From: Escherichia coli
GTDB lineage: Bacteria; Pseudomonadota; Gammaproteobacteria; Enterobacterales; Enterobacteriaceae
Assembly (NCBI RefSeq): GCF_044324785.1
Contig: NZ_CP172127.1
Length of the DNA stretch: 64,000 nt
Strand: one strand, 5' to 3'
Part shown: positions 54,072-61,700 of the stretch, in pieces
How the letters are laid out: the number at the start of each line of letters is the position of its first letter
How positions within the stretch are numbered: the stretch's first letter is position 1
The notes under the pieces: generated by a model
The model's database searches: none
Told to the model about the DNA's origin: nothing
The model's input: only the letters and a program-made list of their open reading frames with translations
Translations under genes and position numbers: made by a program

Positions 54072-57000
54072 GGAGTAACAACGTTTGCAGGTATTGACCA
54101 CCAAAGAGGTGGTGCAAGTGAAGGTATAAATCGAATCACTCTATATATAACATACCCTGCGCCAATTGTAGCACCAGTTGCAAGAGCCGCATCAGTAGTT
54201 GATAGCCCGGAGGTTTTGCATGACAGATCTTTACTTGGTTCTGGCTCGAAACCATATTTTTTTGCACATTTCTTAATGCTATTTGGTGCTGATGAGTAAT
54301 CCTCACCATGGGACATACCTCCAAATTCCCCCATTACACCACTCCCATTTTTACACTCCCAATGCAAATGTCTTCCGTCACCAACAGCATCGCCATCTAT
54401 TCGGATTCGACAACCTTTACCACAGTCCTTCCATTTTCCTGAAGTATGAGCTAATCCCAATGGATCAATCCATTGCACAGGATTGTTCATAACATAACTG
54501 TACGGGTTTATTCCCCCCGCCAGCCCTATCGGATCCTGGATGATATACCGCCCCTGCAACGGATCGTAGTACCGGTGACGGTTATAATACAGCCCCGACT
54601 CCTCATCGTGTTGCTGCCCAGGCAGACGGTAGGGCTGGTGCAGGTGATGCGGGTTTTCCTCATTCAGCAGGTTTCCCCACTCATCATACTCCCCGCTCCA
54701 CGCCGTATTGCCGTCTTCGCTGATGAGCGCCAGCGGCAGGCCCCGGTGGTCGCAGTGGTAAAGATGAACTTTTCGCGCCGGTGTGTATTCCGGCTCCACC
54801 TGTCTGGCCAGTTGCTCTACCGTCAGCCCGCACTGCGCAAGCCACGCCCGGCTTTCACTGCTCACGCGGTCTGCCCGGATTTCCCCCTCCAGCCTGTCCA
54901 GCATCCTCACAAGTTCTGCCGGGAACACCACACCGTGTCCGTTCTCGCTCCCTTCCTGCTGCAACTTCTCCGCCAGGCTCCGCCGCTGCGTTTTCTCCCG
55001 CTCGCCGTTGTCTGTTTCGATGCGGATGAGTGGTGTGAAGCTTCCCGGCTCGTATACCGTCTGGATACGTGTGCTGTCGGTCTGCACCGTCGTCAGGTGG
55101 TCGCCGTCCCAGCCGTACCACGTCACCTCCGGTTTACGCGACAGCGACATCCACCCCGTCAGGTCACGTACCCGCCGCCACACCCGTTTACCCGTCCGGC
55201 GGCCCAGCGGGTCGTAGAGGTAGCGGCTCTCCACCTGCGGCTCGCCATGCTGTATCCGCGTGTAGAACACCAGGCGGTGCTGGCTGTCGTAGTGGTAGTG
55301 GTGGGTCCGCTCGTCGTCCGTCCGTATCACACCCGCCGGGATGCGGTCCGTCTTCTCCGTCAGCCTGCCGTATTCATCGTGGCGGTAGACATAGTGCGCA
55401 TCCTCCGCGATGCGGTTATCCGGCCACACTGTGAGTGTACTGTCCGGGTGCAGCTCCGGGTCCGGCAGCCGGTTGCCCGCCGGGTCCGTGGCATACGGGA
55501 TGCGGATGTCCAGGTCCGGTGCGAGGGTGCGCACACTCTCCAGCCTGCCCGTGGCGCTGTAGCCGTATTCCCGCGTCTGTCGCGGGCCGCTGATGCGCAC
55601 CAGGTCGCCGTTGTCATTCCACCCGTAGTCACGGTCATACACCAGGCTGTTCAGGTGCTGGCTCTGTAACTGGCCTGCGGGGGTGTATGTGCTGGTCAGT
55701 TCGTATGCGGCATTACTGCCTGCCATGCTGCCGAAGCTGCGCACCGTCTCCCGGTGCAGCCTGTCCCGCGTATACTCGACCCGCGGCGTCCCGCCCAGCT
55801 TCATTCCCGCCAGGTAACCGCTGCCATACGTCAGCCACTCCACCGGCGGCAGGCTGTCCGGCGTGACGCGGTTTGCCAGCCCCTGCTCGTTGTATGCGTG
55901 TTTCGTCTCATGCTGCCACAGCAGTTCCCCCGTCTCCGGGTTCTCCACCGTCTGGCGTTCGCCGGTCAGGCGGCCTTTATCGTCATAGCCGTAGTGGACC
56001 GCCACACGGTGGCCTTCACTGATATGGCTGAGGGTGGTTAACCACCCGTGCTCATCATACTGCCACTGCTCTGCCGGGTCGCCGTTCACCGTCCGGTGCG
56101 TGATGCGGTCTGCTTCATCGTAGTACCACTGCGTGACCTGCCCCTCATCCTAGCTGCGGATGAGCTGCCCTGTGGCGCTGTACCGGTAACGCTGTGTCCT
56201 GCCATCAAAGCCGCGCTGCTCCGTCAGGCGGTCCAGCACATCGTAGGTAAATTCACTCCGGCTGCCGTTCTCGTTGGTCAGCACGGTGATGCGCCCGGCA
56301 GCGTCATACCCCATGCTGCGCGTCAGCCCGCCTTCCGTCACACTCACCGGACGCCCGCGTTTATCATATGCGATGGTGCTGCGTTTACCGTCCGGTGATA
56401 TCGTTGCTGTCAGGTCGCCTGCGGCACTGTACTCATAACGGGTTTCACGCCCCTGCGCATCCTTCTGCCCTGTCAGCCTGCCGCGGCTGTCATAGAGACT
56501 ATAAATACTGAGACCTTCCTCCCGGTGAACGGCGATTTGTTGACCGTACCGGTCATACTCATACCGCGTCATGTACCCCGAGCAGTCCGTGAAGGCCCGA
56601 AGCTGACCGTACCGGTTTCGCGTTATTCTCCGCGTTACCCCGATTCCGTCTTCCACCGCGCCGGGCAGGCTACTGCGGGGGGAGTCATAAAACCAGCGTG
56701 TAATGTTACCGTTGCGCGAGGTCTCTTCTGCCAGTCGGCCCTGACGGTCATATTTCCGGCTGCTGCGTAAACCATCCGGATATGTCACTGAAGTCAGTTG
56801 CAACTGGCTGTTATAGCCATACCACACCGTCCTGCCGTCCGGCAGTATCACTGAAGTCAGCTTTCCAGACGCCATATGCAGCCGGTTCACCGTCCGCCGC
56901 CCCGCCGCATCCGTCTGCGCCTTCAGCCTCCCCGCCTCATCATACTCGCTGCGGGTGATGCTCCCGTCCGCATGCTCCTTCTTCACCACCCGCTTCAGAC

Positions 57001-58780: not shown

Positions 58781-61700
58781 CTATTCTGGCGTGCCATTTA
58801 TTGTTGCCGTCTGTGTTGGTGTATTCACACGATAATACACTCCATTATATGCTGTTCTGGTACACTCACCTAAAGTTTTCGCCGCATGCTGTTCAATTAA
58901 AGTGATAACTCTCGCCTCTTCTTTATTTTTATATTGTTCATCCGCACGTCTCACAAGCCCCATATAGCCATCCTTATCAATAAGATATAAGTGCGCATGA
59001 GCAAACTCATGCCCCAAACCTAATGCAGGTGATTGTGATTTCGATTTTAAATCAGTTGAACAAAATAAAGCCGCCTTACCATTCCAATATATAGTCATTT
59101 TATCCGGGTCAAATCTAACGTCGGTTTCATCAATATACTCTATCTTTATGGTTTCTTCAGAGCTTGATAAAAAATCTATAGCTTCTTTCATTCGTGAATC
59201 TTGTTTTAAATACTCAACAGCCTGATTAAAATCACTTGGATCATCGTTAACATGGAATTTTAAACCCAAAGAATCTATAAACCGAACAGGGTTTAATGGA
59301 TATTTATACAGATTCCATTCACCTCTTAGCCCGATTGGATCCTGGGTGATATACCTCCCCTGTAGCGGGTCATAGTACCGGTTCCGGTTATAGTACAGTC
59401 CTGATTCCTCATCATGCTGCTGCCCCGGCAGACGGTATGGCTGGTGCAGGTGATGCGGGTTCTCCTCATTCAGCAGGTTGCCCCATTCATCATATTCCCC
59501 ACGCCATTCCGTTGCTCCTTCGGTACTGATGAGCGCCAGCGGCAGCCCCCGGTGGTCACAGTGATAAAGATGAATTTTTCGCTCAGGTAAATAAACCGGC
59601 TCTATCTGTGCCGCCAGCCGCTCCACCGTCAGCCCGCACTGTGCCAGCCACGCCCGGCTTTCACTGCTCACGCGGTCTGCCCGGATTTCCCCCTCCAGCC
59701 TGTCCAGCATCCTCACAAGTTCTGCCGGGAACACCACACCGTAGCCGTCCTCGCTTCCTTCCTGCTGCAACTTCTCCGCCAGGCTCCGCCGCTGCGTTTT
59801 CTCCCGCTCGCCGTTGTCTGTTTCGATGCGGATGAGTGGTGTGAAGCTTCCCGGCTCGTATACCGTCTGGATACGTGTGCTGTCGGTCTGCACCGTCGTC
59901 AGGTGGTCGCCGTCCCAGCCGTACCACGTCACCTCCGGTTTACGCGACAGCGACATCCACCCCGTCAGGTCACGTACCCGCCGCCACACCCGTTTACCCG
60001 TCCGGCGGCCCAGCGGGTCGTAGAGGTAGCGGCTCTCCACCTGCGGCTCGCCATGCTGTATCCGCGTGTAGAACACCAGGCGGTGCTGGCTGTCGTAGTG
60101 GTAGTGGTGGGTCCGCTCGTCGTCCGTCCGTATCACACCCGCCGGGATGCGGTCCGTCTTCTCCGTCAGCCTGCCGTATTCATCGTGGCGGTAGACATAG
60201 TGCGCATCCTCCGCGATGCGGTTATCCGGCCACACTGTGAGTGTACTGTCCGGGTGCAGCTCCGGGTCCGGCAGCCGGTTGCCCGCCGGGTCCGTGGCAT
60301 ACGGGATGCGGATGTCCAGGTCCGGTGCGAGGGTGCGCACACTCTCCAGCCTGCCCGTGGCGCTGTAGCCGTATTCCCGCGTCTGTCGCGGGCCGCTGAT
60401 GCGCACCAGGTCGCCGTTGTCATTCCACCCGTAGTCACGGTCATACACCAGGCTGTTCAGGTGCTGGCTCTGTAACTGGCCTGCGGGGGTGTATGTGCTG
60501 GTCAGTTCGTATGCGGCATTACTGCCTGCCATGCTGCCGAAGCTGCGCACCGTCTCCCGGTGCAGCCTGTCCCGCGTATACTCGACCCGCGGCGTCCCGC
60601 CCAGCTTCATGCCCGCCAGGTAACCGCTGCCATACGTCAGCCACTCCACCGGCGGCAGGCTGTCCGGCGTGACGCGGTTTGCCAGCCCCTGCTCGTTGTA
60701 TGCGTGTTTCGTCTCATGCTGCCACAGCAGTTCCCCCGTCTCCGGGTTCTCCACCGTCTGGCGTTCGCCGGTCAGGCGGCCTTTATCGTCATAGCCGTAG
60801 TGGACCGCCACACGGTGGCCTTCACTGATATGGCTGAGGGTGGTTAACCACCCGTGCTCATCATACTGCCACTGCTCTGCCGGGTCGCCGTTCACCGTCC
60901 GGTGCGTGATGCGGTCTGCTTCATCGTAGTACCAGAGGATGACAAGCCCCTCATCTTCACTCTGCGTGAGTTTTCCGGTCAGGTCATAATGATAACGTTG
61001 CGTCCGCCCGTCAAAGCCGCGCTGCTGTACCAGGCGGTCCAGCGCATCGTAGCTGAAGTCGCTGTGACTGCCGTTCTCGTTGGTCAGGCTGATGACACGT
61101 CCGGCAGCATCGTACTCCATACTGCGCGTCAGCCCGCCCTGCGTGGTGCTGACCGCCTTTCCCCACGCATCGTACTGTGTCTCGCTCCGGTTGCCGTCCG
61201 GGGTGATAACGGCAGTCAGGTCGCCTGCGGCGTTGTACTCATACTGCGTTTCACGGCCCTGTGCGTCTTTCACCGAGGTTAACCGGCCACGGTTGTCATA
61301 GCGGCGGTAACGGCTGATACCTTCCTCACGGTGGACCGCCGTCATCTGACCAAAGCGGTCGTATTCATAACGGGTCTGGTAGCCCGAGCAGTCGGTGAAC
61401 GCCAGCAACTGCCCGTAGCGGCTCCAGGTCATCTGCCGGGTGCTGCCCGTCGCATCCGTTGTCGTCGCCGGTAATTCACTGTGCGGATTATCATAAGCAT
61501 ACCGGATGACGTCCCCACTGCGCGATGTCTCCGTTACCAGCCTGCCCGGTTCATCATATGCCCGGCGGCTCTCCAGCCCGTCCGGGGACACCACTGCCGT
61601 CACCTGGTTCCCGTCGTTATAGTAAAATTTCGTCTCCCGCCCGTCCGGTGTGGTGATGTCCGTGATATCGCCTGACACCACATTCAGACCGTACTCTGTC

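Follow-up and report, generated by a model that had tools for sequence, protein, structure and literature searches.

How did two tandem rhs genes that differ substantially in their 5' parts and tails come to share an almost identical piece of core? The question is raised by a 64,000-nt stretch of Escherichia coli contig NZ_CP172127.1 (assembly GCF_044324785.1; hereafter the window), for which a preliminary description had proposed recent gene conversion or recombination between the two genes as the source of an identical block of about 1.3 kb and had connected that process with the swapping of toxin tails. Rhs proteins are major toxins that a type VI secretion system (T6SS) delivers, and the way in which strains alter their set of toxins is a question of current interest. 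Comparison of the two genes with each other and with homologous loci indicates that the block very probably arose by repeated homologous exchange of the RecA type (gene conversion and, occasionally, crossing-over) between the only same-subfamily parts of the tandem genes. The genes and their copies of the block are as follows:

58781..63043, minus strand: rhs copy B, an intact open reading frame (ORF) of 1420 aa
59261-63043, minus strand: core of copy B, aa 1-1261, of RhsD/E type over most of its length
59646..60934, minus strand: block in copy B, codons about 704-1133, at an offset of 4806 from the A copy
54068..58242, minus strand: rhs copy A, a full-length pseudogene in three ORF pieces
54840..56128, minus strand: block in copy A, inside the open 3' frame

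Copies A and B were colinear on the minus strand at a constant offset of 4806 nt (3 x 1602), and the block (54840-56128 in A, 59646-60934 in B) contained 5 mismatches in 1289 nt (99.6% identity), located at positions 54937, 54938, 54943, 54950 and 55805. The near-identical segment is therefore real, and the coordinates first given for it were within 10 nt and 3 nt of these. A strict core (54951-56128) contained 1 mismatch in 1178 nt, and the longest perfect run was 854 nt. Across the ungapped stretch of 2769 nt the two copies were 85.1% identical, with 412 mismatches; when the positions of these mismatches were permuted 10000 times, the longest stretch free of mismatches averaged 40 nt and reached 101 nt at most, compared with 854 nt in the actual alignment. 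A sliding-window identity plot, as had been suggested, likewise returned a discrete block and no uniform identity. The sharpness attributed to both edges held for the 5' edge (in the sense of the gene) at 56128/56129, where identity fell abruptly from 100% to ~65-70% with 273 differences in the next 772 nt; the 3' border was softer (56 differences in 318 nt, ~83% identity). Past the end of the core the toxin tails of A and B could not be aligned.

At third codon positions A and B diverged by 0.7% inside the block, compared with 46% for the 5' flank and 34% for the 3' flank. Because near-identity extends to synonymous sites, its cause is sequence transfer and not constraint. Strong purifying selection on the Rhs shell might be thought to keep the copies identical, as the block encodes part of the conserved YD-repeat core; given the contrast at synonymous sites, on which it was rejected, we regard this as practically impossible, and it also runs against the 29-62 differing sites that separate orthologues in the same block and against the pseudogene state of copy A.

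Both genes otherwise have the make-up expected of Rhs proteins. YD repeats (TIGR01643) and the Rhs-associated core domain (TIGR03696) were matched in A and B, and both translations contain 'QDPIGL', which fits the DPxGL motif that precedes the variable tail. Copy B matched NCBIfam NF041261 RHS_core over positions 1-1261 of 1261 with 2753.6 bits (cut-off 2000), and the pieces of copy A matched positions 1-100, 91-696 and 718-1261 of the same model (182, 1091 and 1177 bits). The N-termini, which had been described as differing PAAR N-termini, do differ (82% identity over the first 100 residues) and do carry a literal KPAAR motif, with DUF6531 significant at 1.2e-18; the domain label was not borne out, since Pfam PAAR_motif (PF05488) was not significant at either N-terminus (E = 0.14 and 1.4, ~20 residues each). 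The account of two diverged tandem rhs genes is right about their 5' parts and tails, and has to be amended in that copy A (54068-58242) is a pseudogene and not an intact gene. Its lesions, tail and neighbouring ORF, together with the tail and neighbouring ORF of copy B, are as follows:

57973..57976, minus strand: lesion 1 of copy A, 4 C on the plus strand against 5 in other strains, a -1 frameshift
56150..56152, minus strand: lesion 2 of copy A, TAG in frame, 22 nt from the block on its upstream side (gene sense)
54071-54451, minus strand: CT_A, the tail of copy A, with a Tox-WTIP match (E = 5e-13)
53697..54041, minus strand: putative immunity gene of CT_A, 114 aa, WP_001279013.1 in relatives, annotated in strains N3 and PCN033
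58784-59260, minus strand: CT_B, the C-terminal extension of copy B, 159 aa, containing HEFAH
58319..58768, minus strand: putative immunity gene of CT_B, 149 aa, dsORF-h1-like, with a hydrophobic N-terminus

Adding one base at lesion 1 restores the frame, after which the TAG is the sole internal stop in 1391 codons. Where the window's copy A has this TAG, other A copies read GAG and B reads GAA. The frame of copy A is open from 56149 as far as its stop codon (54068-54070). Copy A thus has the character of an orphan, with its lesions lying 5' of the block and an open 3' core, a Tox-WTIP tail and an intact immunity ORF following it. In N3 it is annotated as 'frameshifted; internal stop'. An old pseudogenisation common to all strains was ruled out, as the lesions differ between strains: the A copies of loci L002-L006 carry a frameshift near codon 520 that is absent from the window and N3, which bear the two other lesions. 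These differences imply that the 5' part of A was inactivated more than once, or was repaired and then broken again. Copy B, intact in the window, has a 4-nt indel in N3 at window position 62239 (L001 20600-20646) and is annotated there as frameshifted. Among the yafV-locus tandems, loci L005, L006 and L010-L013 have a copy B without codons about 35-225, annotated 'missing N-terminus', so that both tandem copies are defective there; vgrG is frameshifted too in several relatives.

For CT_B no significant Pfam family was found (the best match was a weak Peptidase_M91, E = 0.15), and Pfam searches gave no family for either putative immunity ORF (58319-58768 and 53697-54041). CT_B and the ORF downstream of it had a ~88% match that is annotated 'RHS element protein dsORF-h1' in many RefSeq genomes.

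Homologous loci were compared in 12 further complete genomes with the same tandem pair, giving 13 loci with the window; N3 and 19KM1831 carry the tandem at the rhsE site and the other ten carry it in the T6SS cluster adjoining yafV. A perfectly identical tract between A and B was present in every one of the 12 other loci, and its ends differed: over the 13 loci the left end was at 54951, 54965, 54984, 55128, 55245 or 55295 and the right end at 55885, 55947, 56017, 56077, 56092, 56104 or 56128. These data also bear on the possibility that reads of one copy had polished or filled the other during assembly. Near-identical repeats longer than 1 kb are prone to collapse or cross-polishing in short-read assemblies; such an artefact is nevertheless highly improbable here, because in N3, an independent complete genome, the block recurs with ends that are almost unchanged, because equivalent tracts occur in the 12 other complete genomes, and because the tract ends fall on biologically meaningful junctions.

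Within the block the window's A and B differed at 5 sites, A differed from its 11 orthologues (those other than N3) at 29-58 sites, and B differed from its orthologues at 52-62 sites. In the flanks the relation was the opposite, with 0-43 differing sites between orthologues and 56 and 273 between the window's A and B. The tandem genes thus show a discrete tract that includes synonymous sites, ends that vary between strains, and paralogues more alike than orthologues inside the tract only, as is expected of gene conversion. Together, the synonymous identity and the 12-strain comparison support the recent gene conversion or recombination that had been proposed.

The history of the block was traced by painting with diagnostic sites, defined as those that separate A-type from B-type sequence in the yafV-locus strains. 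Painted in this way, the block of the window alternates between a-type and b-type segments in a pattern that is the same in A and B, and an identical mosaic in both copies implies that sequence moved in both directions. The patches seen in the yafV-locus strains were of b-type sequence inside A copies. At loci L002 and L005 the central 591 nt carry a haplotype that is private to the strain and common to its own A and B. The window and N3 differ mainly at diagnostic sites at the borders (54962 and 54964 in A, 60911-60919 in B), from which it follows that the tract changed even over that short time scale. The central 773 nt (55245-56017) were identical in nearly all of the tandem loci compared and contained no fixed A/B differences in the yafV-locus strains, and the parts of the block to the left and right of this centre differed by ~9-14% between A and B in unconverted strains. 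Judged on these loci, only the extension of identity from 773 nt to 1.29 kb is lineage-specific.

The E. coli Rhs proteins fall into the subfamilies RhsA-B-C-F, RhsD-E and RhsG-H. Jackson et al. 2009 confirmed three such subfamilies (PMC2935791). To place the parts of the two genes among them, a comparison set was used that comprised K-12 rhsA, rhsD and rhsE, IAI1 RhsE and RhsH, and single rhs genes beside vgrG at the yafV locus. The assignments are as follows:

5' 2.1 kb of copy B: 95.5% to K-12 rhsD, 96.2% to the single rhsE-locus gene of PCN033, 74.8% to RhsH
last core part, tail and immunity gene of copy B: full-length match to the RhsH unit only, 85.6%
56129-58242, 5' 2.1 kb of copy A: RhsG/H-type, 87.6% to IAI1 RhsH, 72% to rhsD
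3' core end, tail and immunity gene of copy A: 99.1% to the single gene of PCN033

The 5' 2.1 kb of A was also 90-99% identical to single RhsG-type genes in most 100-nt windows. By these similarities, RhsD/E-type and RhsG/H-type genes have been joined reciprocally into the chimeras A and B, and the block (94.6% identical to K-12 rhsD) is the segment where both genes are of D/E type. The junction from G/H to D/E type in A lies at about 56130-56250 and coincides with the 5' edge of the block at 56128; the edge is abrupt because past this junction homology (~65%) is too low for the tract to continue. An explanation of both borders as clean subfamily junctions was rejected for the 3' side. Below 55244, the divergence of B from the D/E type was only ~9-17% and its sequence could not be classed simply as RhsH-like; the RhsH of IAI1, moreover, is a mosaic too.

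Three further observations concern the composition of these genes. At ~57600-57900, copy A of the window and of N3 was 77-79% identical to other tandem A copies and 93-97% identical to the yafV RhsG-type genes of loci L018 and L019, which by this comparison is another mosaic tract, from a third donor type. The K-12 rhsE pseudogene (L014 3891-5939, against window ~54524-56041) has a 5' truncation that maps into the 5' part of the block interval. The tail of K-12 rhsE is unlike either tail of the window.

A crossover within the block would join the 5' end of B to the tail of A and would delete or excise the following segment:

56129..60934, minus strand: 4806-nt repeat unit, comprising the A 5' core, the spacer, the immunity gene of CT_B, CT_B, the B 3' core and one copy of the block

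Deletion of this unit from the window in silico gave an intact ORF of 1389 aa at any crossover point in the block, which along its entire length shares 96% identity with the PCN033 protein. At their rhsE site, PCN033 and elppa4 have a single rhs gene straight after vgrG, whose 5' part is of b-type and whose 3' part, of a-type, leads into the CT_A tail; in PCN033 the gene is intact and occupies the same chromosomal locus as the window. In PCN033 the switch falls at some point between 55244 and 56018, in elppa4 close to 54840. Genes with the sequence structure of recombinants between a main 5' part and an orphan tail thus exist as single genes in other genomes, with the switch in or at the edge of the block, and the link to tail swapping made in the preliminary description gains support from the PCN033 gene, which combines a B-type 5' part with an A-type 3' part and A's tail and switches inside the block interval.

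PCN033 and elppa4 hold the tandem pair at the yafV locus; in N3 and 19KM1831 the arrangement is reversed, with the tandem at rhsE and the single b-5'/a-3' gene at yafV, so that in 4 of the 4 genomes checked the 4806-nt unit was in only one of the two homologous host genes. The VgrG1 and VgrG2 of PCN033 are one residue apart and have near-identical neighbouring sequence (PMC6363058), which fits the near-identity of the two loci. The single yafV gene of N3, 1.3 Mb away, has the same mosaic block, with 3-11 differing sites in 1289 nt against 47-63 to other strains. The CT_A tail with its immunity gene was found in 405 genomes, once per genome and in single-gene context in the two checked, and the whole tandem with this tail at rhsE only in N3 and 19KM1831 among 5426 genomes.

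These distributions raise the question of whether the identity is simply the footprint of how the tandem was built in this lineage, by Campbell-style integration of a circular 4.8-kb RhsH-type unit or by unequal crossover, with no later conversion. The rarity of the rhsE tandem with this tail beside the frequency of the tail itself, the presence of the 4.8-kb unit at one of the two loci only, the block haplotype that the N3 yafV gene shares with 3-5 differences in 1289 nt, and the circle model proposed by Jackson et al. (PMC2935791) all argue for such a history. A single crossover, however, yields reciprocal hybrids, and identical copies arise only if the blocks of donor and recipient were already the same; one a/b mosaic is common to both window copies; and the tract ends vary among the 13 loci, even between the window and N3. 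Moreover, the same A/B architecture occurs in other strains with 38-81 block differences between the copies, which makes the tandem older than the identity. As a full account, construction of the tandem is therefore rather unlikely; it is compatible with repeated exchange and may account for the 773-nt core.

Repeated exchange between the tandem genes, the explanation that we prefer, would have proceeded as follows. The D/E-type stretch shared by copies A and B would have served as the exchange substrate. In the lineage of the window, further tracts in both directions would have extended identity from the 773-nt core to 1289 nt, with the tract halting on the 5' side at the collapse of homology. 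The block could then act as the crossover site that joins the vgrG-linked 5' end of B to the stored Tox-WTIP tail and immunity gene of A; as both lesions of A lie upstream of it, any crossover in the block would fuse the intact 5' part of B to the intact 3' core, tail and immunity gene of A. Such a crossover would remove the 4806 nt, possibly as a circle able to re-enter another D/E-type rhs gene, and integration of the unit into a single D/E-type gene would create a tandem. What the genome comparisons show is repeated homologous transfer confined to the shared D/E-type segment, and that tandem and single forms both exist.

Several points weigh against this explanation or limit its reach. Conversion, excision and switching are all deduced from comparisons of sequences, and import between strains of alleles that were already mosaic is not formally separable from conversion within a genome. 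The order and number of events rest on parsimony only, and two events would give the pattern of the window. The sharp 5' edge falls on an old subfamily junction in copy A, past which the homology runs out. Phylogenetically the 13 loci depend on one another, the sites used for painting were chosen from the very sample to which they were applied, and the yafV locus of the source genome lies outside the window. The Chi sequence GCTGGTGG occurs 9 times in the window and nowhere between 47081 and 64000, hence not in the rhs region, so that nothing marks the block as a programmed hotspot; Chi sites as the cause of the tract borders were rejected for the same reason.

A more far-reaching proposal, which we put forward tentatively and consider doubtful, is that the 4806-nt segment is a cassette moved purely by homologous recombination between D/E-type 'docking' genes at the rhsE locus and at yafV, with the block as the attachment homology. 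If so, each landing would divide the resident gene between two chimeras, one expressed and bearing a new toxin, the other silenced and keeping the old toxin in store, and the strain-specific block haplotype found in three paralogues of N3 would be its footprint.

The surroundings of the tandem identify the site and complete the element. This stretch of the contig is the E. coli rhsE site, with narZ-narI, yddE, nhoA and yddH on one side and yncH, yncG and ansP on the other. Read in gene sense, it runs from vgrG through rhs B, an immunity ORF, rhs A and a second immunity ORF to ISAs1/H-repeat, the outer members being:

63110..64000, minus strand: 3' part of vgrG, a T6SS spike gene that runs past the end of the window, directly upstream of rhs B
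52214..53350, minus strand: ISAs1-family (H-repeat, ydcC) transposase gene (NF033564, 3.7e-120), the usual downstream border of Rhs elements

The C-terminal part of vgrG matched NCBIfam TIGR03361 and TIGR01646, and the gene is labelled VgrG in N3. The ISAs1/H-repeat gene (52214-53350) is interrupted by an internal stop, likewise in N3, leaving an ORF of 357 aa. GC content was 0.60-0.66 in both rhs cores against 0.32-0.43 around the tails and immunity ORFs. The region hence has the hallmarks of an Rhs element: a GC-rich core, an AT-rich extension, a small ORF after it, vgrG upstream and ISAs1 downstream.

The closest genome was that of N3, with 99.8% identity across 53600-63100. The rhs island (51318-63100) differed from N3 at ~20 sites (~0.17%); within the compared interval 40171-64000, the nar/yddE flank was ~1.5% different and 50717-51143 had ~45 differences in 430 nt. 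As the island diverges from N3 less than the flanks do, it seems to have been shared more recently than they were. An insertion of ~1.45 kb at 48286-49749, between yddE and nhoA, is absent from N3; its ORFs at 48360-48890 and 48995-49717 match an IS3-family transposase model, the second at 3e-89.

The relation of this locus to known systems can now be stated. Lin, Capage and Hill reportedly described Rhs cores in 1984 as substrates of homologous recombination, and Wang, Zhao and Hill are said to have reported in 1998 (J Bacteriol 180:4102) RhsH in tandem with RhsE at min 32.8, with core exchange between subfamilies. Recombination between Rhs cores is long known, and the present locus is a further instance of it and no new mechanism. 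It resembles the E. coli RhsE/RhsH site in its position between ydcC/pptA and yncH, in its linkage to vgr, in having E- and H-type parts adjacent and in its H-repeat/ISAs1 border. Unlike the tandem of IAI1, in which unmixed E and H genes stand at the rhsE site, each gene of the window is a chimera and the reciprocal of the other (B joins a D/E core to an H tail, A a G/H 5' core to a D/E 3' core), and they abut directly, with no IS between them.

In Salmonella Typhimurium LT2, experiments showed rhs-main and rhs-orphan to recombine across 522 bp that are 95% identical (Koskiniemi et al. 2014, PMC3967940), and recombination in the core builds a chimeric gene that deploys the silent toxin (PMC3967940). 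The likeness lies in an expressed rhs gene beside vgrG, a silent downstream copy with its own tail and immunity gene, and shared core homology (PMC3967940). The silent copy of the window differs from the short 3' fragment of LT2 in being full-length and decayed, with 5' two-thirds of another Rhs subfamily; the homology is 1289 nt at 99.6% against 522 nt at 95%, and switching is here inferred from sequence. The locus is a clean natural example of the proposed route, since a functional gene stands beside a decayed neighbour whose homogenised stretch begins just downstream of the lesions, and both predicted products, the tandem and the single chimera, are found in sequenced genomes at two chromosomal sites.

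An analogy with the silent cassettes of Neisseria pilE/pilS, also drawn by Jackson et al. (PMC2935791), would extend to an expressed gene and a silent copy whose conserved segments guide RecA-dependent transfer; unlike pilE/pilS, the locus bears no sign of high-frequency or programmed switching and has no Chi site in the rhs region. Jackson et al. 2009 also proposed that recombination of a core with a downstream core fragment excises a circle (core, tip and immunity gene) that reintegrates (PMC2935791). By their same-clade criterion, the 3' 1.7-kb core of A is of D/E type like B, and its 5' 2.1 kb is of G/H type. The 4806-nt unit found at either of two loci is in keeping with the circle scheme; the locus departs from it in that the 5' core of the downstream copy comes from another subfamily and that the N3 block haplotype is present in three genes at two loci 1.3 Mb apart. 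The locus also tempers an earlier claim that recombination between Rhs cores of different loci is rare, and a structure of reciprocal chimeras with a 4.8-kb unit at either locus seems to be less well documented.

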